A stretch of DNA of 51,366 nucleotides, the filler included, from Catajapyx aquilonaris (taxonomy: Eukaryota), in assembly GCA_000934665.2 (NCBI GenBank). It is 2 parts of 2 records of this genome, joined end to end, with 100 filler letters (N's around TTAATTAATTAA, not from the genome) between each part and the next. Parts side by side here need not be neighbours in the genome. Positions count along the whole stretch, not along the records: positions 1 to 25,730 come from JYFJ02005347.1; 1 more part is not named here. One strand, given 5' to 3'. Under the pieces are notes generated by a model. That model made no database searches. It had not been told where the DNA came from and was given only the letters and a program-made list of their open reading frames with translations. The translations under genes and the position numbers were made by a program. Below are positions 1-49,676 of the stretch, in pieces. Each line of letters starts with the position of its first letter. The first letter of the stretch is position 1.

Positions 1-84
1 TAAATGTTGAATTCATGCAATTAACATTTTTGTGCCATGTAAATTAAGCTCACATAAATCTGAAAGTGTAAGTAATGCAACACA

Positions 85-1434
85 CTTGTATCACTTGCAT
101 CCCCAGGAATCCATGATATTCAGGAACTGTTATGGGATCCCAGTTCTTCATCTTTTTTTCTCTTCTTCCCATCCATACCGTCTTGCGTTGCACTCATGTT
201 TGTCTGTTCAACCAGCTGCGTCATGACTTTGTCATCTAAGAACATATGAAACAGTTCGAGTGGTTTCAACTCTCCATAGTTCTTGTTTTTGATGGCCCTA
301 TTGCCACCAGTAAATGGAATGTGTTCATTTTGGTTTATGAAGCTGGTTGTTTTTGTCCATGTCCATCCAGGTGCTCCTCCATTAGGCTGCTGCGTTGGAT
401 CATGCTCTGTTGCACCACCACGTCTGGCCTTGGGTGCAGAACCTGGACACGGGGCATCTTGCCTGGAAGTGCGGTGTTTTTTTTAAAGCCCGTCAATCAA
501 ATTGCTTGTATTATAATTTATTTTGCATAGCTGTGACATTGCAACATTGTGATATAATATTGTAAAACTATGCTATGTGTGAGGGCTAGTTTCACCGAGT
601 CAGTTTTATTATAAATCCTAGTTTCTTTTCGGAAAATCCTTAGTTTTGATTGTTGTCAACAATGATTGCTATGGCAATTCTTGAGCGAGCCCAGGTTGGT
701 GAAACCAGCCCTGCGTGTCTGTCCCATAATGCAGTTAGCATTAGCAGAAATTAATATATCCATGTACACTGTACAGTATATCTATTTATCTTATTACCTG
801 GAGGTGGATGGCTGAGGACTTGGACTACGTCTTGACATTACCTCTTGTCCATCACTCTCCTCCTCCATATCTTCCACATCTCCTTCAACCTACTCTGCCA
901 TACCTTCCACACCTCCGTCACCCTCTTCTCCACCATCAATCTCATCAACTAGCTCCGGATTATGCAACAGCAATGAGCCCATTTCCGCAGGTTCCAGCAC
1001 TTCAAATTCCATCTGCCGTGATAGGTCCTGGTCTTCACCATGTCGCAGGAGTACCTTCGAGGTACACAAGAGCAATACACAGGCGTTCCCTTTTACTCAC
1101 GTTTATTTCCAGAGTTCCCAAATACAACAGAGCTACGCCAACACACCTCTATTCCTTGTCGCCTCGCTTCTCCTTCTCCGCACCGGGCTCGTTCATCTCC
1201 TGCACCGCCATCTCCACATCCGCGTCGACGGGAGCAACCACCACAGGAGTGCCCATCTGCGGGGGCTCCAAGAGCTTCTCCAGTCTCTCGAACAAGGGCC
1301 TGGGCTGCCAACAGTTGAGCACGGGCAGCTTCCACTCTCTCCGGGATTGACGCCGCCGGATCAAGCACGGCGACCACCGGGTTAGGGGCAGGAGCTTGTA
1401 TCGTTAGCTGGGACTCTACTGAAGCCCCCATCAC
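85..1434 (-). pseudogene. piggyBac-like (PGBD, DDE_Tnp_1_7) transposase N-terminal part, intron-containing, degenerate; may continue past the left window edge
   Basis: Minus-strand translation of ~300-85 gives KPLELFHMFLDDKVMTQLVEQTN and, after a frameshift in an A-run, KNWDPITVPEYHGFLGMQVIQ. These match the piggyBac P.ELF.LF.DD....IV.ETN and W..VT..E...FLG motifs. An upstream acidic segment (DEIDGGEEGDGG...EDMEEESD) ends at a CAG|GTAATAAG donor near 798. Linkage of 800-1434 to the transposase is inferred. Confidence 0.65.
582..712. mobile_element. Small MITE with Harbinger-like TIRs inside the piggyBac-like intron
   Basis: AGGGCTAGTTTCACC (582-596) and GGTGAAACCAGCCCT (698-712) are 15-bp inverted repeats with 1 mismatch; the 3-bp TSD is imperfect. 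Confidence 0.45.
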
Positions 1435-1499
1435 TACTGCTGCTAAAGAGCTGGCAGTAGTGATGGGGGCTTCAGTAGAGTCCCAGCTAACGATACAAG
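1395..1499. repeat. Perfect 46-bp inverted repeat (hairpin), 13-nt loop
   Basis: 1395-1440 CTTGTATCGTTAGCTGGGACTCTACTGAAGCCCCCATCACTACTGC is the exact reverse complement of 1454-1499. Confidence 0.95.
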
Positions 1500-3446
1500 T
1501 TCAAACCTGCTCAATATTGCTTCAGATTTTTTAAGATACTGGTGTTTGAATTTTAACGCAGGAAATAATGGCTGCACCTCCACGTTCCGAAGACGATTAG
1601 TAATTAATTCTCGAATGTTGATTAGCATTGTGAGTTATTTTTTGTTTGTAATACTTAGAAAACTTATGAATGATGATGTCCATGTGGAAATATAGGCATA
1701 TTTTTTACTTTCCTTGTCTGAGGGTGGCGTTGAAATCGGGTGTCCCCTATGAGGGACACTCGGCAAATGCACCACAAATGGACCGGCAAGTCAAGCACCG
1801 GTACTCTAGGGTCTAGGCTACTGTATGCGCCAGGATTTTGTGCGTTTTGTCGAACTGAATTTTTATGAATCCCTATCAAACATTATCATGCATACAACCC
1901 CCCCCCCCCCCACCAACGACGTCTAGATCTGGTAAAACCTGTGTATAGCAGAATAGCACGGTGCCCTAGAAAAATCGAAATTGACAAGTTTCCGCTGAAA
2001 ATTACGATTTTCCTAGTCATCAGCACCAAACGGGAAAGAGTGGAAGTAATCTCTATCCACCTTGGTGGAAGTGAACGCTGCAACGCCGCAAAGCATTGTG
2101 GGCGGAGAGTGGGGAAGGAAAAAAAGTGGCGCTGTTGTTGCGGATCGCGCGCGAACCATTTAACGGTGTCGGATTAACGGTGTCGGATATACATAGTACG
2201 GTATATCAGCCGTTTCCGCTATATTCGACACGGTATTTCTGTCCTATACATACGCCCGTTCCCGGAAAAATTTCGCAATGGACAAGTTTTTGTAACACTC
2301 CGGGTACGTTGTCAGGCCCCTTCGTTACTTACCTCTAGGGCAAGGCCTGATCCATACTCCTCAGGAGGGTTCCAATAATAAGTACAAAGGTAATGATCAC
2401 TTACACTCCTTTATTCGCTCCTTACACTTTTTCCTCCTGCCCTTCACTCCTCACTATCCCCCAGGGTATCCCCCTTGCCGCCGGCCAGGGTAGCCAACAT
2501 ACATGCCATGCCTATGGCAATTCTCTTTCTCCATCTCTTCCTTCCAACGCCGCAGCTGAACCACCTCCTCCTGCAGCTGCAGCGCCTTCCCTGTACTTTC
2601 TGCACCAACTTGTCCGCCGACCCCTCCTCAACAACGATGCCCAACTTGATGGGATCCGCCCTCTGCTCTTCTTCCATGCGCCTTTTGTTTTCCATATACA
2701 AAATGCCGCTCCTCCATTTTAAATAGTGTCTCGGCGACAAAAAGTGCACTTGTGGCACATCCGGTCCCAACGAGCCCAGTACGATCCCGGGGCCGGACTC
2801 AGCCACCTCCTCCTCAGATGGTGCGGCATACGATGTCCCCGCGTGGTCGGTCCCCCTCGGTGGTTCATGTGGGCACGCCGCACAGTGGTCTCAATCGCAA
2901 AAAAAATGGCATAACTCGAAAAATTACTCTATCCTGACGAAAATCAGGAATCAGGGGTCTTCTTGGTCGTGGAATTCAAATCTGTTGAAAAAAAATTCAA
3001 AATTCAAAATGGCGGAGAGTTCAACATTAAATTAGTTTTATGGCGAAAACTTGAATCTGGGTTTTTTAGTGGTCGTGAAATTCTAATGTGTGATAAAATA
3101 TGCAAAAGTCAGTATTCCGACAGCTTCCCTTGTACTAAACCTCAAAAAAGTAAAGACTTGTACTGTATATAACCTATAAGTAGGCTGGTAAAATTAGTCG
3201 TACTAGGGAAATAATGATGTAGCCTAATTTATGAAGTGCCCGTGCAATTTCGTGCTCAATTTTGGCTCTGGCGACCTCCCACAACAACTGCCGCGTGCCG
3301 CCATTCCCATACAAATTACCACCAGTACTGAGCTTGAATATAATGAAAACGTTATTTGCATCATTACAGAAATTTTCTCTGAATTATCGTGGAGGTAGGG
3401 TGAAGCCTCGCGATGTTATCAGAAACAGTAATTTGTTGCTTACGCC

Positions 3447-5564
3447 TTAGTCGTCCTCTTGAGATTGTTCCCCACATGATTTGCTTTCATCTTCCATGCT
3501 GGTGTCATCAGTTGCCAATAATAGTTCTCCGACTTCCTTCCATACCTTCTTGAATGGCTTAGGCTTAGGCTTTTTCCTGTATGAAGAGATGACAGGGTCC
3601 GATGTCACAAGCAATATTTTGAGAAGGTCCTCGTTTGTAGCTGTGCGGGAGAGCTTTCTGGTGTGATGTTCCCTGTAGTATCGGTAGTCTTTGTTTCGGG
3701 CTTCCAGAGCTTCTTCAGAGAGGATGCCAACTGGTAGAGGAGCTTCCTCAATCAGCTGATGGCCGTGAACCAGAAGCCGATGCACTGATGCTGGCATATG
3801 GTACCACGGGTAATAGCGTACCAGCAGCTCTGCCGTTTCCAGAGCATACTTCTTGAATGCCCTCGAGTCAATGGGCTTGGCACTTGACACTGCCTGCAAA
3901 AGGACACTCATCCTGTGAATCACTTTCGCGTCGATTCCAGTAATTTCTGACGAAAGTGAGGGGTCGTCAAAAAAGCGCCTGGCGGTATTGCCATCATTGG
4001 TGTTTCCTCCTCCTTGCTTCACCATATCAACTAAAAGGCCAGTTTTTTTCCTGAAGCTTTCTTGGACATAACTTTTCTTTTGCCGCACAAATTGCTTTTC
4101 GTCCTTGTCTATAAAAATAAAACCAGATTAACAACGCATGCATTTAGTGACTTTTAGCCTAACTTGTTTCCAACAACCCAAAGTGTGCAATAATTTAGCC
4201 TCACCTGTAATTGCCCACTTTTTCACATCTAAACGATACGATACATGCAGCAGGTACTCCATGCATCTGATATGGGCATGTAGAGGTGATACTCCAAAGA
4301 GCAAACTCTTCTGGTCTACTGGCTTCTGCAGGACAGATGCAATGTCGTTCATCTCTCTCGGCAGAGCGTTACAATGAGGGCATCTTTGGCATGACTCGGT
4401 ATCCGTTACAACATTTCGAACTTTTCCGTCGATCATTGAGAGAACAAGATCATGACTCACAACAAATTCTTGGTCCAAATGCAGAAAGCGAGTTGTCTCA
4501 AGGGAAAGGATTTGGCTTTGTACATAGTCGTGCTCTTCTTGGATAACCTTGGTGGTTTCCTTCTTAAATCGAAATCTAATGGGGCGGCAGTGTCTCGTAG
4601 AATTTGCTCGTTCATTTGTCCACAGTACATGATCCCCTGACACCAATCTTAATGGTACCAGTGACGTGCTAAACATGTAGCAGTCACATGCATCCTTCTC
4701 CTCCAGTCTCTGTTTATATCGAGCTTGACCACTGCTACCGTCGAAGCCATACTTTGACGTCAACGTCAGTTATTGCCTTTGCACAGCACCCTCTGTCTCT
4801 CCTGGTAAACTCTGCACCAACCGTTTAGCTGTGACGTCCAAAAGCCCTTGAAGGCGTACTTCGGCGGATGTTTCTGTCACCTTTATAGTGTCATCAGGTG
4901 GGTAGCACAGTTTCTTGGCATGGAGGACATTCTTGTATGATGGGTAAATGTTGGAATTTCTGCCCTTTGCTCCAGTTCTCATCATAATATAAGCTGCCTT
5001 GGAAATGCGCATGTCAATGAGAAGCGCCAGCGCCTCTTCTGCAGTGTATGGTTGGACACTTTTCCCCTCTTTTTTCTCTTTCCATGCCTCTTTCACTTTC
5101 TGCGCCCGGGTTGGTGTGGTTTGAGTGGTTTCTTTCAACACACTAGCCTCTGCAATGAGCCCCGCAGCACGCAGGCTAACTTGAGTAGCATAAGCTAACT
5201 CTTGTACCGTGTGCTCTGCTCTCAATTCCTCGGTTTTGCGTCTTTTTGAGCGAATACTGCTCTCAGAGAAATCTTTCTGCGGACGACCAGTGGAAGTGCT
5301 TGGTTGATTAATGAAAAATACTTCATCACGGCCCAGCCACTCTGCGTACTTGGTAACAAATGTTGACTTTTTGCGACTCACCGACCCCCATCTCTTCTTG
5401 CACTCAGATATGAAAGTTTTTATGGTGACATCATGCTCACTGTCAAGAATTTCCTTTTTCAAAATTGTTTTCACAAATTCGTTCAACCGATCATGTTTAT
5501 CCTCCTCTTTGACATCGCAAATCGCCTCCCACAATTTTATGCGCGCTATATTTGTTAAAACCAT
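3447..5564 (-). pseudogene. Transib transposase (RAG1-core-like DDE), 2 coding exons (5564-4205, 4108-3447), one in-frame TAA at 4770-4772
   Basis: Motifs GRPQKDF..SKRRK, IYPSY...AKKLCYP, KYGFDGSSGQ (D1), SMIDGK (D2), CQRCPHC, SPLHAHIR, TNDGNTARRFF, SVHRLLVHG and LSEEALEARNK (E). A 96-bp intron 4204-4109 (GTGAGG...TTTTTATAG) splices in frame to give KKWAITDKDEKQFVRQKK. Total 2022 nt. Confidence 0.93.
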
Positions 5565-5649
5565 CGTCGCAGACTCGGTATGCAGAATGAGGCAACCTGA
5601 AATGTACGACCATTGGTTCGCTCAAATTACAGATTTATAGTCTGACCAG

Positions 5650-5936
5650 AAGCGAAAGAATTGGTGGGTTTTTCCCATCAACCCAAAAAACCCCACCGCC
5701 ACCCTACCCCCTCGAAAATGCCCCACTTCCCAACAATGTTAATCCGCAAAAGGGTTCGGAAAGGTCAGTTTAAAATATGACCACAGATCCACAATTACGG
5801 CAACGTCTCCTTTTAAACTGACCTTTCCGAACCCTTTTGCGGATTAACATTGTTGGGAAGTGGGGCATTTTCGAGGGGGTAGGGTGGCGGTGGGGGGTTT
5901 TGGGTTGATGGGAAAAACCCACCAATTCTTTCGCTT
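5650..5936. repeat. Long inverted repeat inside the Transib: 126-bp arms, 35-bp spacer
   Basis: 5650-5775 is the reverse complement of 5811-5936 with only 2 mismatches, at an A/C run boundary. Confidence 0.95.
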
Positions 5937-7469
5937 TAAAGCAATTTACTGCGTGCAGATTCAGGGACTTACTTTCAGGTTTTGTTCACAACGGCAACTC
6001 ACGCCTAACCACACTCCGACACGAACCATTCATGAAAGTACAAGTCTATCACAGTGTAGCCGTCTCGGTAGCTGTAGTACAACCCACTGGATAACACCCA
6101 CTGTCTGCATGACCACGGCACAATCCGACACTAACACTATCCATGGATAAGTACCACCAGTCTACCAGAGCGCATCCGTAGTACAACTCGCTATACTCAG
6201 GGAGACACTCACTGCTCATCAGTGTCATCACGGAACTGAGGCAAATTGAAGCTTTTCCCCAGCTTGGACCCTTTGGCGCCATGGCCAGGGTGACCAGGTG
6301 GATGACACGTATCCACATTTACTCGGACATGTAGGGGCAGTACACTCATAAGCTCCTATTGGTCCACAAAATGACGACCTATTGTGTGATTGGCTGATGC
6401 CTCACTGCCGTATATTCCCTGCAGGGACATGCATGTGAGGTTGGCTACCCTGGCTGACGCTCGGCTAGACTCACGGCTAGACTCCTGCGTGACGCGCCCA
6501 AGTGTCGCCGCAGGAAAAAAGCGCGCGTACTTACAAATCTGCACCTTTCCGCAGCCAATTTTGCTTCGCACGTGTGCATAATAGTCACAGAAAGACAATG
6601 ATGTAAAAATGGAGACCCCACCCCACCCCACCCATTTTGAAACTCGATGGCATTGAGGGACTTATCGGGAAATTTACCGAAAGGGATTCTTCTTTATTAC
6701 ACAACAATCTAGAATGGGATCGGTACATTTTTTTCCACTAATATGACTAATATATAATTGTATTCTGCCAACAAATAGTTATTATTATCCTACTGCAATC
6801 TTTTTTTTTTTACTTTCCGGTTATTTTTTAATAAGCTACTCGAAAGGCTCGGATTATGTTTGTATAAAGCGCGGAACTTCTGGCCATGAAAGAAGGCATT
6901 TTGCGACGCTGAAACCTAAAATAAATACTCCTCCGTGACGCTCCTGACAGTTCGGTACAACTCCTCGTGGTTCGTTGTCCCGTGTAATGGAATTCAAAAA
7001 GTTGGTTTTGCCTTTTTTTTGCGATTGAGACCACTGTGCGCCGGCGTCGTATCCAAAGCGATCTCACGACCCACGGCCAATCGTACATAGGGGTAATCAT
7101 GGGGGCAAGTATGATGCCCCTCAGGCATCTCCCCTATTTCTGCCGCTCCTTTCTGCCCATGGCCCCCCACTCCCCCCGATGACTTCCCCACGACCATGTG
7201 AGGAGCACCACCGCCGCGGCGAGCCCTCCAGGCCCCCCTGCCTCTCAAGTTGTTTGTTGAGTCCGCCATTTCCGCCACACCTCAAGACCCGAATCAAAGC
7301 ACGTCCTTTCTTCCCCAGACAAAGGATCTGTCAAACGTCCGCGTGCGTGCGCGACCTAATATATTTCTTTAGTTCAGAAATATGTATAGGTCCGAACACC
7401 TTATTCGACGTCGGGTTTCATAATAAATACGAAACGTCATGCACCCTTTTGACAACGTCGTATGGCCCA

Positions 7470-8790
7470 TCATACTTGTGTGCCAGTGCCTTCGCAAATC
7501 CATGTGCTGCTGCATACAATATCACAAAATTTCAGGTATCGCACCACAACCACAAAAAAATGATACAACTTCTGTATGGCATAAATTGGCATCTGTCCAA
7601 ACAAGGTATGCATTTTGTTCACAGGCAACAATGGTACCTGGTCCAATGATCTGTTTCTTATCGATTGAAAAAAAAAATAACACTCATAGATTAGGTGGTA
7701 CAACGTCCACTCAGCATTACTATTGCATAACGTGCACAACTCGTCTTGGGGGAAGCTGAATTTATAATCTAATACATAAAATGACACTGACATATTGCGG
7801 AGATTTGATATCAATCTGACCTGTGTGAGGGGGAGGGAGTAAAGGAGGTGTTGTGCCGCTCCGTAATCTGGAATTAGTTCTTGATAATAATTATATTTTG
7901 CTGACTCCTGCATATCTCCCAAATCTTGTTGGTGTGTTGAAATTATAAAATTATTTATTAACAATTTTTTTTTTTGCATTACCCCATATCTACACATATA
8001 TGGGGGGTGGATTACCACCATCGGGATTATTTTTGGAGCGAGTCAAGATTTAATCTTGTTAGTATGCTCCAAGGTAATTAGGAGGGGATGTGCAAAGTGC
8101 GTGTGCGCGGGCGAGTAGTGGTCATTTTGTGAACTCCCCCGGGTGGCTTAGTCTATCGGAAATTGCCACCCGAAACGAAGCCAGAGATGGCCCAACTCTG
8201 CACGAAAGAAGGTGGGAACCCCGGGTTGGGATTGAACCCGGGACCTTAACTTCCGTGGGCGCGCGCGTTACCGCGGCGCCACTCCGTCTCCCTTTATTTA
8301 TTAACAAATTGAAATTTGTATAATCTCCTTCTAACATCCAATCTTTCCATGGATATCCGCCCTGGCGGAACACCCCCTTCACCAAACCCACCCACTTAGG
8401 TTCAGGCTTAGCGTACATTGACCATCTTAAAGCTATTTTTGACCATCTGTCTTCAGGTAAATTCATTTTCACTATCATAAACTTAATTAATTGCTTGAAT
8501 ACGTTTATTATTAAGTTCCTACGCCCTGTTTCTAATCTCAAGTAATATCCTGTATAAGTCCACAAATAATGCGTATAATTTTCCCCTCTTTTTCGTCGTG
8601 ATGTACTTTTGTATTAGCATCGTTAAGACGAATATGTGATCTTGGCAACTTCTGTTCCGTCGAAATCCCGCCTGGTTCTCTGCTGAGGATCTTACTTTCT
8701 TCTACCCATCTCCGCATCCTAGTTTCCAGCAATGGCGTAAATATTTTTAAGAAATTGTTAAGTAATGAAATAGGAGGATAATTTTCTGGG
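7470..8790 (-). mobile_element. Degenerate non-LTR retrotransposon ORF2 fragments (RT start, post-RT region, C-terminal CCHC zinc finger)
   Basis: ENYPPISLLNNFLKIFT...RRWVEESKIL is NYRPISLL-like. YYLRLETGR and CTLCNSNAEWTLYHLIYEC are also present. Internally deleted, frameshifted and interrupted by a SINE. Confidence 0.8.
8090..8292 (-). mobile_element. tRNA-derived SINE
   Basis: The minus strand starts GGGAGACGGAGTGGCGCCGCGG (A box) ... GGTTCAATCCC (B box), followed by a non-tRNA body. Nested in the LINE. Confidence 0.75.
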
Positions 8791-15381: not shown

Positions 15382-15963
15382 CTACTCATCGGAGGACGAG
15401 ATGTCCACATCAATGACGCCGTCACGGCTCGTCCCAGCGGTTGGTTCATCCTTGCTCGTCGATGGTCCAGGAACTGCAGCACCAGAAGGTCCGTCCTGTC
15501 GTTGGCTACCAGAGATCCCTCGGAATACACGGAAACGTGTGGCGAAAGAGCGGCGAGTGTTGGATGGCGTCTCGCCCCACGGGTTGGTCCCTGTAAGGAT
15601 CTTTCGGCCGTAGTCCAGGTCACATTCCCATCTCGAAAAGAAGTCGGCAGCCAACGTGACCGGCAGGACCGAGTCTGGAACAATGGTAATTTCCTTCCTG
15701 ATGGTCAGGCCGCCCACTTCAATGGGAAGAGCAATCCGTCCCATCGCTTGTACAATCCGGCCGTCTGCAAGTTGGATTTCGCCATCGTACTGGTGACGGA
15801 TGGGAGGCAGCTGGTCTGCAGGCATCCTCTGTAAGAAGCTGGCAGCAACCGTAGACAAATCAGACACACTGTCCAACAGCGCCCTGGTCCGGTGACCACC
15901 AGTACGGATGTATACTGTGGTAGCAGCCGCAGTATGGCGCGATGGTCCAGCCTGAGCCATCAT
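15382..15963 (-). pseudogene. Retropepsin-type aspartic protease remnant
   Basis: VYIRTGGHRTRALLDSVSDLSTV (LDSG to LDSV), IQLADGRIVQAMGRIALPIEVGG, VTLAADFF. Confidence 0.8.
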
Positions 15964-47091: not shown

Positions 47092-48449
47092 TAATGCCTT
47101 TAGGCTTGCAAAATAAACGGTCAGTATCATAGAAGACACAGCCCCATATAATATTCATCTCCATTTTGCTCCCACTGAATGACTCAAACTAGGGCAGACT
47201 GGCAATGACTTCACAAAATTTCAAATCCAGTCATCTGCATCACAAGAGCGTTAGTCATCAAACTTAACCTGGGTAATATTGCGCAAGGAAGATTTCAACG
47301 AATCTAAATCTGAGAGCAAATGGGCACATTTCATACCACCTTGTTCACACATGGCTCTTGGCCAAAGCTGTTTTATACATGGCAAAAGTGCCATTTTAGC
47401 ACCACCCTGCACGTCAACGAGATACTCACGTGAATTAATCTTGGCCTCTTCCTTCGCCCCCCATCATCCTCCCGCAGTGGAGAGGAGATTCCAGAGGAAG
47501 ACTGAAAGCACATTGATAAATGTCATTATGATGAATTAATTCTCTGAAAAGCATGTCGCATTAGTTTCCTCAGTGTCACAACGATTATTCTTCTCCCTTC
47601 TTTGACCATTTCAGAATTGGGCACAATGATTTATTATCAGTAGAACAACATGGGCATATATGCCAAATGACCCCAATTAGGTAGTTTTTTGTTACATACT
47701 GGATAAAGGTTCAGGCCACAGCAGGTCTATCTCATATGGAATATGTTCAATGCCATCACTTCCATGAGTAAGAATTATCCCTGGGTTATTAAAACAAAAC
47801 CTTTCACGCCTGAATATTCAAGTTAGCTACAGTAGGGGAACCAGGAAAACACTGCAGGATTAGGGTGGGTTTTTCCAAATTCCCAGCCCCCATCCTCACA
47901 ACCCCAGTCTCGTAAAATGTGGAAATATGGGAACTGGCAAGTTACTTAATGGTATTATAAGATGATTGCCAGCGTACGTCTCGAATAGCAAGTGGTCTCT
48001 TATCCTCCCTGTGAAAATTATTAAAACGACATGGAAATCAGTTTGAACGTCCGGCCGTCTCGCAGATCTTATTCAGTGGGGCCATAGTGGACTGTTTCCT
48101 TTTGTTGTGAGTCCTCCGTCTCTGGGTCATTCTGGCGCTCCTTCTGAGTGCCACTTCAGACGCGCTTCCGTGACCGTTACAATATGTACAGGAAGATACC
48201 AGGACTAGCTGTTCTATGCGCACTAGGCAGTATGAGAGAGGCACTCTGTAATTACAATTTAGTCTGCTGAGTTAATGTTAGTCGTCGTAAATGATTTTTC
48301 GAAGTTCCATGATTGGCTTAATTTGACAATTTCTCAATATTGTGCGCTCAACTAGCAATTTATTCCTGCTAGTTTTGGGGGCATGTGATGCCTGCGTGGA
48401 AGTCGGAATAAGTGACAGTTGTTTGCAGGTTTTTTGGTGCAGGTCTTCG

Positions 48450-48840
48450 TGCGTCTTCGTGTCTTTGAGATTGCCTGCCCACATGTTAACAGAAAACCTT
48501 TCCTGGCAGCACCGAATAACCTTAGTATGGGTTTTTTTTCCGTCCCGCATATTGCACATATCCTATCTCTCGTAAATGTGGCTTCGTCTGTGTACAGGAC
48601 CTGGTCCGGAAAGTCGGGGTGCTGTGTGCAGTACCACTGGCAGAATTTCACGCGGGCCAAAATGTCTGCTGGCCTCAGACGTTGTACCTTTTGTGGCCCG
48701 TAGGGATAAAGCTGTTCTTCGTGTAATACCTTCCTGACAGTACTGTAGTGGCAGTGAAGATTAGCTGCGACCCGCCGTGTGTTGGATGATGGTTCCCTTG
48801 AAACTCTAGCCAGAATGTCCTCCTCAAAGTGCGGACATAA
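48450..48840 (-). pseudogene. Tc1/mariner-superfamily (DUF4817-associated type) transposase relic
   Basis: EEDILARVSREPSSNTRRVA...STVRKVLHEEQLYPY..QKVQRL...RVKFCQW...VLYTDEATFTRD, then frameshifted QERFSVNMWAG. Confidence 0.85.
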
Positions 48841-49676
48841 TTCCCACGACCCTTCTCCTACCAATTTCCCTAACAATTAATGCCGTTAAACTTTAGATTG
48901 GTACCAAGTGACCACTTGTTGGTGGACGTCGGATGAATCCTTGAGAAATGCCGGGACGTCTCCACTTGAATGACTTGAAAATGACTTACCTTCTCACATA
49001 TCTTTTTTCAATTGTAGCAGGAGGATATTAAGCATTGTTTTTAACTTCACCTGATGCATTAGTGTCTTTGCTACCAAATTTATATGATCGAACTGACTAA
49101 ATGGAAGTGATATTGTGTAAATGAAAAGGCAACTACTACTCTCTCCCAAGTGCGTCTTACAATATTCGACATGTTTTCTTGATTTGGTCGAAACCAGCAG
49201 TATGGCCCACGGGCGCCCTCTGTTATTTATCGTCTTGGTGTATGTCGCAAAAATTACTTTTGCCAGTTACGGCGCAAGTTTTTTTTTTTTTTCAGCACAA
49301 ATAAACAATCGCCTGAATCTCATTTCAAAAGGTATCGAAATGGCTTTGGTCTTGGTCAAGGACTATGGATGAAGACTGATTTTGAATATGACTGTCAACA
49401 TCTTGATTATTATTATTATTATTATTCGTTGAATAGATTGTGACCTGCACATCATGTGGTCATGTTCGTTTTATATCTGGTTTATGCGCCGTTTCATCAG
49501 CTGGGGTGTCATACATTAAGTGTTGCGTGATAGGAGACGCGGGAGTTGTCTTACCTCACACGGAGGTCGCCATATCCCAGCCCATCGTCTTCTCTCATAT
49601 TTAAGACGTATTCCTCCGAAGCAGCAACTGCAAGATTTCATGCTGTTTACGCAATCAGGCAGTCACCTGCCCACGG

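Follow-up and report, generated by a model that had tools for sequence, protein, structure and literature searches.

Positions 2881-7038 of the window (by which we mean the whole 51,366-nucleotide stretch of Catajapyx aquilonaris DNA that was analysed, from assembly GCA_000934665.2) hold a 4158-bp element with inverted ends, the pentanucleotide CGCCG on both sides, and a minus-strand transposase gene in two exons (Table 1). The terminal inverted repeats (TIRs) consist of the 26-bp sequence CACAGTGGTCTCAATCGCAAAAAAAA, present in the two orientations with 0 mismatches, and a search for it returned 2 matches in the window as against 0 in 100 shuffles; inward of base 26 the two element ends resemble each other only loosely. 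The target site duplication (TSD) is GC-rich, 5 bp long and directly repeated, and it reads CGGCG on the strand of the transposase gene. An earlier note on this DNA had described both the TIRs and the TSD as perfect, and our analysis agrees on each count.

Table 1. Coordinates of the element and its parts in the window
Feature	Position	Strand	Evidence or remark
TSD, left copy, CGCCG	2876..2880		Read directly; falls within a 31-nt inverted pair
TIR, 3′ side of transposase gene: CACAGTG, then GTCTCAATCGC, then A8 run	2881..2906	+	Identical over 26 nt to 7013-7038 on the opposite strand
3′ non-coding part	2907..3446	-	No family match for any ORF
Transposase exon 2, codons 454-673, stop TAA 3447-3449; H563, H568, catalytic E589	3447..4108	-	phmmer against 6pqn_A, E 6.2e-59
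Intron, 96 nt, GT...AG, pyrimidine tract, in-frame stop	4109..4204	-	Frame and colinearity with relatives
Transposase exon 1, ATG 5564-5562, codons 1-453 plus one base; D275, D379, C395, C398	4205..5564	-	phmmer against 6pqn_A, E 2.2e-61
In-frame TAA, codon 265; first catalytic Asp ten codons later	4770..4772	-	TTA on the plus strand
Nested high-copy foldback repeat, MITE-like, without outer right end	5636..5936		301 bp; complementary arms
5′ non-coding part, presumed promoter and leader	5937..7012	-	Function presumed from position only; no ORF >101 aa
TIR, 5′ side of transposase gene	7013..7038	-	Perfect match to 2881-2906 on the other strand
TSD, right copy, CGCCG	7039..7043		Read directly

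Besides the transposase gene, no open reading frame (ORF) longer than 101 aa lies within the element, and no RAG2-like gene was found in it. Of the non-transposase ORFs listed for the element, five, three inside it and two across its ends, gave 0 matches to Pfam, and none of the three longest ORFs of the 5′ non-coding part has a Pfam match. No further copy was found in the window when it was searched for the end sequence (allowing up to 3 mismatches) or, outside the element, by blastn with the complete element as the query, and there is no paralogous empty site within it. Among the read contigs listed there is also no element-skipping joint of the kind that an empty-site allele would give, although contigs of this kind do not demonstrate fixation. 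The element lies in DNA that is rich in repeats and poor in genes, with no host gene found among the flanking and other long ORFs. Far from the element lie a retroelement protease fragment and a Tc1/mariner HTH fragment.

Terminal sequences and nested repeats

Both ends start with the heptamer CACAGTG and carry a run of eight A residues at positions 19-26. The spacer length is ambiguous, because the A-run permits several assignments: with a 12-bp spacer, AAAAAAATG and AAAAAAAGG agree with the Transib nonamer given in PMC1131882, AAAAAAATC, at 8/9 and 7/9 positions, while a reading with a spacer of ~20-21 bp gives GCAAAACCA and GCATAACTC as the corresponding blocks. The Transib superfamily, as described by Kapitonov and Jurka 2005 (PMC1131882), is defined in part by its RSS-like ends. 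The earlier note had made the exact CACAGTG its headline, and while the heptamer is indeed present at both ends, giving it such prominence was an overstatement; it is common among relatives, with CACAGTG at both ends of seven of the 11 related loci that have recognisable end pairs (relatives on metagenome contigs, used as a control).

A segment of the 3′ non-coding part, 2937-3016, recurs in other repeats of the genome. The depth of the read contigs is 128-244 at 2897-3068, as against 37-58 in the adjoining sequence, and a 171-nt read contig that is ~90% alike begins exactly at 2881. On the other side of the gene, ~70 bp upstream of the ATG at 5564, lies a foldback repeat that is absent from the earlier note. 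Its arms (5650-5775 and 5811-5936) are 98% complementary, with a DNA fold of -165 kcal/mol (z -31). The repeat has a contig depth of 400-800, with 9-16 contigs per run, and at loose contig ends other copies of it continue beyond 5929.

The transposase gene and its relatives

The spliced gene has 673 residues and a single internal stop, the TAA at codon 265; no frameshift interrupts it, and it runs colinear with nine relatives from Met1 to the C-terminus. One of the proteins with which the frame is colinear from Met1 is P0003, at 48.4% identity over 659 aligned positions. The intron has the borders GTGAGG...TTTTATTTTTATAG, and its removal restores both the frame and a 23-residue W-to-F spacing that is found in intron-less relatives; on these grounds of frame and colinearity the 96 nt are probably spliced out. 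The canonical intron and the lone nonsense codon, both reported in the earlier note, are as it gave them. The window copy cannot make transposase: the TAA stops translation ten residues before the first catalytic Asp, such that any product would be without D275, D379 and E589.

No transposon proteins are more closely related to RAG1 than the Transib transposases. In a phmmer search of solved chains, both exons match the Helicoverpa zea transposase HzTransib (6pqn_A), with exon 2 query positions 11-208 aligning on chain positions 287-485 (the chain index being the residue number minus 16). For exon 2 there is in addition a weak match (E 0.0016) to the amphioxus RAG1L (6b40), in the region of the His pair and the catalytic Glu; vertebrate RAG1 chains were not among the matches of the solved-structure search at E up to 1. 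Neither exon matched Pfam at E up to 1, and the family assignment thus rests on the sequence match to the solved structure together with the homologues. P0009, one of the relatives, gave only a sub-threshold RAG1 match in Pfam.

The residues D275, D379 and E589 align with D125, D224 and E435, the catalytic residues of HzTransib as numbered in the text of bioRxiv 10.64898/2026.08.26.747230. Conservation was scored over the 103 homologues of at least 580 aa among 120 that were fetched, and the three catalytic columns hold D in 102, D in 100 and E in 101 of these. C395, C398, H563 and H568, putative zinc ligands by their correspondence to C727, C730, H937 and H942 of RAG1, are all present, in columns kept in 103, 103, 101 and 102 of the 103. 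Across all columns conserved at 90% or more, the query keeps 101 of 106, and the five departures (W272Y, S321N, G530A, K564R and I580V) are all conservative, each being seen in a few homologues. The full-length Transib identity, the intact DDE triad, the presence of the putative zinc-ligand residues and the nearly intact state that had been proposed for this copy are all borne out, with one internal stop as the exception to the last. Taken together, the match to Transib, the catalytic residues, the Cys and His pairs and the 101 conserved columns indicate a young, autonomous-type Transib copy.

The family is a large one, with 293 homologues at E up to 0.001 and 3504 cluster representatives in public protein data. 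In the public collections that were searched, the window protein has no closer match than proteins of only 48-57% identity. Its named relatives are from insects and spiders. In a FastTree phylogeny built from the 103 homologues and the query, the query joins P0003 and P0004 with a support of 1.0 and on a long branch. The element is a further Transib, an ordinary find for an arthropod-like genome.

Read contigs and the state of the family

The locus is very probably the product of a single insertion of an autonomous-type Transib into a GC-rich CGCCG target in repeat-rich, gene-poor DNA, with little change since. The recency of that event rests on the low level of decay. The questions of copy number and of an intact copy rest on the contigs of four sequencing runs (X1-X4), all of one sample. 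Contigs of all four runs hold C at 4772, which turns the TAA into GAA (Glu); in X1-X3 this version forms a short contig of its own, while in X4 it is the main contig. In each of the four runs, moreover, the main contig has A at 4585, which changes Arg327 to Leu. The window and contig versions differ at four listed sites within 4585-5544 (4585, 4772, 5080 and 5544) and at 0 sites in 2879-3896 or 5907-7020, and the window's letters at 4585 and 5080 occur in no contig of the sample. The family is small in this one sample, where the contigs show, beside the window copy, a near-identical second version, at another locus or as an allele, together with a few 90-94% similar fragments.

One reading of these data is that the family is still alive, with a functional, uninterrupted copy in the species, the window copy being a very recent casualty that can still be mobilised in trans. 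It would fit the GAA codon found in every run, at a column that is variable among the 103 homologues and is Glu in 8 of them, as well as the small number of listed differences and a protein that has no other sign of decay. We nonetheless regard it as unlikely. Leu327 is in all four runs, at a position held by Arg in 102 of the 103 homologues, and X4 joins Leu327 to the stop-free codon in a single contig; the foldback repeat, which contigs enter from both sides and none of those listed skips, appears common to both versions; and the four runs amount to one sample, in whose contigs the variants 187 nt apart are not phased. Each version thus seems to carry one lesion, with no clean copy seen in the contigs of this sample. 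The earlier note's expectation that active copies probably exist accordingly gains a stop-free codon in four runs and is set back by R327L in the main contigs, and its proposal that repair of one codon could resurrect an enzyme leaves out of account the nested foldback repeat, which lies a short way upstream of the ATG. If the two versions do carry different single lesions (the stop at codon 265 with Arg327 in one, Glu265 with Leu327 in the other), both would have to come from an intact progenitor with very recent activity, and a third copy that is still intact might exist in the species, a scenario that we consider quite improbable.

Alternatively, all four variants, the A/C difference at 4772 among them, could be alleles of one locus, the element being a single-copy relic without a partner elsewhere in the genome. 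This is conceivable, though we lean against it. The differences are few, four listed ones across 4585-5544, and in X1 the depth of 23.3 at 5907-7020 is close to the 19.9 and 22.8 of the junction contigs; but the contigs break inside the element ends (2879-2908 and 6991-7020) instead of running through them, two X4 contigs both have C at 4772, and the fragments that are 90-94% alike point to other family members. Element contigs are moreover mostly deeper than the two junction contigs, by 1.1-2.2 times, which is no more than a weak hint, depth not being equal to copy number. At the left side, the junction contig ends at 2908 and the next contig begins at 2879, a break that we interpret as branching to another flank. 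That the sequence is a host-retained gene domesticated from a Transib, and not a transposon copy, is extremely improbable: the frame is well kept, but the perfect ends and target duplication, the premature stop before the catalytic core, the repeat nested beside the start codon and the repeat-rich surroundings without a host gene all count against it.

We return to a single recent insertion, in which a Transib would have entered the 5-bp target CGCCG and changed little afterwards. In HzTransib, as described in PMC4840297 and PMC1131882, a dimer of the transposase, bound to both CAC-initiated ends, nicks the DNA where each end meets its flank, frees the element by forming hairpins on the flanks, and then joins the ends to a new target with a 5-bp stagger. 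By analogy with HzTransib (PMC4840297), the window element may have moved by the same nick-and-hairpin cut-and-paste process. With its two intact ends, it could still be mobilised in trans if the family retains an intact member.

Comparison with known elements and significance

According to PMC1131882 and PMC4840297, Transib elements have a 5-bp TSD that is usually GC-rich; the window element has such a TSD, together with a homologous transposase, a DDE triad, CAC-initiated, RSS-like ends and a single gene. HzTransib (PDB 6pqn, 6pr5), the Transib transposase that has been studied biochemically and structurally, is homologous across the whole solved core, with the catalytic D, D and E and the CxxC and Hx4H pairs all aligning, and it too belongs to a single-gene element with 5-bp GC-rich targets, as PMC4840297 describes it. 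About half of the aligned residues differ, however, and the window protein has ~190 additional N-terminal residues relative to the solved chain, which are common to other full-length relatives. The window element also differs from HzTransib in having an intron in its gene and a different end sequence.

By description only, the window element (4158 bp, 673 aa, two exons, CGGCG on the gene strand) resembles Transib1_SP of the purple sea urchin, which PMC1131882 describes as well-preserved, 4132 bp long, with a 676-aa two-exon transposase and a CGGCG duplication. Transib1_SP is 34% identical to the insect Transib2 according to the same source, and the named relatives of the window protein are from insects and spiders, so that the lineage is probably a different one. 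The recently active Nozomi and Hayabusa of Drosophila are likewise full-length and autonomous, with little decay and a DDE core, and occur beside non-autonomous derivatives (in the account of bioRxiv 10.64898/2026.08.26.747230). Their lineage has duplications of CARTG, 3 bp or TA and some ends that begin with G, as the same preprint reports, whereas the window element, compared by description, has ends starting with CAC and a GC-rich duplication of the canonical 5 bp. RAGL transposons of the ProtoRAG type share CAC-initiated ends and 5-bp duplications (described in PMC7204232), and their RAG1-like protein, as RAG1 itself, shares a distant common core that is seen here in the weak exon 2 match. 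They carry a convergent pair of RAG1-like and RAG2-like genes (PMC7204232); the window element is without a RAG2-like gene, and its similarity to them is far below that to Transib. With one gene only and so weak a RAG1L match, we reject its membership of the RAGL group.

What the window holds is a defective copy from a very large family, as the thousands of cluster representatives attest, and its RSS-like terminus is usual within its clade. Its practical value is accordingly limited to the annotation of repeats in this genome and to a lead for surveys of Transib activity in this species. To our knowledge, only a few Transib transposases have been shown or argued to be active. If the two versions did descend from a very recently active intact progenitor, they would represent a further naturally active Transib lineage beyond the few that have been studied, with symmetrical ends in which an A-tract follows the exact RSS heptamer at a spacing of 12 bp. 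Another intact lineage would widen the comparison of how the recognition of ends, through heptamer, spacer and A-rich block, and the choice of 5-bp GC-rich targets vary.

Structure and coding capacity of the Transib copy

The Transib DNA transposon copy at 2881-7038 is young and full length, but defective. It begins with CACAGTGGTCTCAATCGCAAAAAAAA and ends with the exact reverse complement of that sequence, which has two matches in the window and none in 100 shuffles; past base 26 the similarity between the two ends is merely scattered. The perfect 26-bp terminal inverted repeats and perfect CGCCG duplication described in the earlier note are thus both present. An end-sequence search and blastn against the rest of the 51-kb window found nothing that duplicates the element, in whole or in part.

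Features of the Transib copy and of its surroundings, in window positions
Feature	Positions	Strand	Details
Target-site duplication CGCCG	2876-2880 and 7039-7043	both flanks	from sequence
Transib element	2881-7038	gene on minus strand	4158 bp, inverted ends and flanking duplication
Transposase exon 1	5564 (ATG) to 4205	minus	starts the frame; in-frame TAA at codon 265
Transposase intron, 96 nt	4204-4109	minus	GTGAGG...TTTTATTTTTATAG; contains in-frame stop
Transposase exon 2	4108 to 3447; stop TAA 3447-3449	minus	frame resumes
Foldback repeat (MITE-like), 301 bp	5636-5936		near-perfect complementary arms
Retroelement aspartyl protease ORF fragment	15382-15963	minus	PF13650, E 1.7e-5
Tc1/mariner-type transposase HTH ORF fragment	48352-48876	minus	PF01498, E 5.9e-9

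The spliced transposase frame has 673 codons and, as had been claimed, a single internal stop (TAA, codon 265; plus-strand 4770-4772). It is colinear with nine full-length relatives from Met1 through the acidic C-terminal tail and matches their spacing across its exon junction, so that the canonical intron proposed earlier, with its GT start, is borne out at the level of the frame, and we infer from the sequence that it is spliced.

A Pfam search with the exons gave no match, and a sequence search of solved structures aligned exon 1 residues 192-481 with positions 8-293 (E 2.2e-61), and exon 2 residues 11-208 with positions 287-485 (E 6.2e-59), of chain 6pqn_A, the Helicoverpa zea Transib transposase HzTransib; the amphioxus RAG1-like chain 6b40 scored no better than E 0.0016. 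Excerpts of a preprint number the HzTransib catalytic residues D125, D224 and E435 (bioRxiv 10.64898/2026.08.26.747230). Because these align, with an offset of 16 between HzTransib residue numbers and the 6pqn_A chain index taken from printed alignments, with D275 (YGFDGSS), D379 (SMIDGKV) and E589 (EALEARN), the latter are the predicted catalytic residues, in keeping with the intact DDE triad reported previously. The putative zinc ligands of the earlier note are present as C395/C398 and H563/H568; their counterparts in RAG1 bind zinc. All seven catalytic and Cys/His columns are conserved in 100-103 of 103 homologues.

These homologues, each of at least 580 aa and drawn from 120 fetched, were aligned to the spliced protein (stop written as X) as a check for damage. 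Of the 106 columns with conservation of 90% or more, five differ in the window protein (W272Y, S321N, G530A, K564R and I580V), all conservative and each present in a few homologues; the median number of such departures among the homologues is three. Because of this, the frame looks sound apart from the stop. No further inactivating substitution is apparent in the window copy, and the overall observation of a young, nearly intact Transib is confirmed.

The foldback repeat, which is absent from the earlier note, has arms that are 98% complementary (DNA fold -165 kcal/mol, z -31), and the transposase ATG lies ∼70 bp downstream of it. In the read contigs of four sequencing runs from one sample (X1-X4) its depth is 10-30 times that of the remainder of the element, it is present in 9-16 contigs per run, and other copies extend beyond 5929; these observations mark it as an independent, high-copy repeat that has come to lie within the Transib and here lacks its outer right end.

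Other versions and copies in sequencing reads

The four runs contain 92-94% of the region's sampled words, and their contigs were placed on 2381-7538. Contigs at 2481-2908 and 6991-7450 span the two element junctions and are identical to the window. Within the element the main contig differs in all four runs at 4585 (C>A, R327L) and 5080 (T>C, K162R), and none of the runs' contigs has the window letters at these sites; the individual or haplotype behind the window may differ from that of the runs. A C at 4772, which turns TAA into GAA (Glu265), is carried in X1-X3 by a short contig of its own and in X4 by both the main contig and a second one; X4 additionally has a synonymous change at 5544 (C>A). 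Among the 103 homologues the codon 265 column varies, with Glu in 8, and 102 have Arg at codon 327. R327L and Glu265 lie on one contig in X4, with the proviso that contigs phase sites 187 nt apart unreliably. A stop-free codon 265 thus exists in the sample, and the version there has a non-conservative change at the nearly invariant Arg327.

This second, near-identical version is either another locus or an allele. Another locus would account for the contig breaks at 2879-2908 and 6991-7020, and for an element contig depth 1.1-2.2 times that of the junction contigs, although such depth does not give the number of copies. Further contigs, 90-94% alike, match 2881-3008, 3876-4016 and 3948-4140, and the third of these extends 32 nt into the intron; therefore the family also has older members, and the window copy shares its intron with others. 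The earlier note considered active copies probable; the stop-free codon is in its favor and the R327L carried by that version is against it. An active family copy is possible, but the only other version seen has a suspicious change of its own.

The left subterminal segment (2881-3068) is several-fold deeper in the read contigs. One 171-nt contig, ∼90% alike, begins at exactly base 2881, and in three runs a contig proceeds from 3008 through 11 letters to 2881 again. These contigs may represent related elements that are non-autonomous or have been rearranged.

Termini and relationships

In excerpts of Kapitonov and Jurka 2005 (PMC1131882), the Transib consensus end is CACAATG, a 23-bp spacer and then AAAAAAATC, and the duplications are 5-bp and GC-rich. 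As a control for the terminus we fetched 80 metagenome-contig loci encoding relatives and, in the 54 that are 2.5 kb or longer, looked on either side of the transposase match for inverted pairs beginning with CAC, retaining those in which 28 or more of 38 bases agree. Candidate pairs were found at 20 loci, of which 11 passed this threshold, and seven of the 11 have CACAGTG at both ends (L008, L011, L029, L045, L064, L073 and L074, although L073 and L074 look like a single insertion recorded twice); L004 has a single such end. In this clade, then, the exact RSS heptamer is the common state, and the distinctiveness earlier attached to it is not borne out.

Most of these relatives have (A/C)CAAAA ∼23 bp past the heptamer, whereas the window element has a run of eight A's at positions 19-26, followed by GGCA(A/T)AA. 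If the spacer is read as 12 bp, the blocks in the window element's ends agree with the published nonamer at 8 and 7 of 9 positions; 20-21 bp is another possible reading. The L008 element (19-3020) has ends identical at 38/38 bases, with CACAGTG, 23 bp and then ACAAAAGTA. L011 (2037-4242), L064 (3220-5754) and L073 (3367-5850) are one family of short elements (2.2-2.5 kb) with exact duplications CAGTG, CATTG and TACTG, a target type unlike the CGCCG of the window element.

For exon 1 the nearest protein in a collection of 5.8 billion is 48% identical (P0003, an unnamed homologue), and for exon 2 the nearest is 57% identical. Exhaustive HMMER with exon 2 returned 3504 cluster representatives at E<=0.001, of which 372 reach E<=1e-30, the best 56% identical. 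In the collections searched, the family has no match above 57% protein identity. Named relatives are from insects and spiders. In a FastTree phylogeny of 104 sequences the window protein clusters with P0003 and P0004, another unnamed homologue, with support 1.0, and its terminal branch is long. None of the window's long ORFs was recognised as a host gene.

The purple sea urchin element Transib1_SP, as described in excerpts of PMC1131882 (4132 bp, 676 aa, two exons, CGGCG duplication), has nearly the same layout. The window element would work, or have worked, like known Transibs, and its RSS-like end is unremarkable, being what one would expect of such an element.
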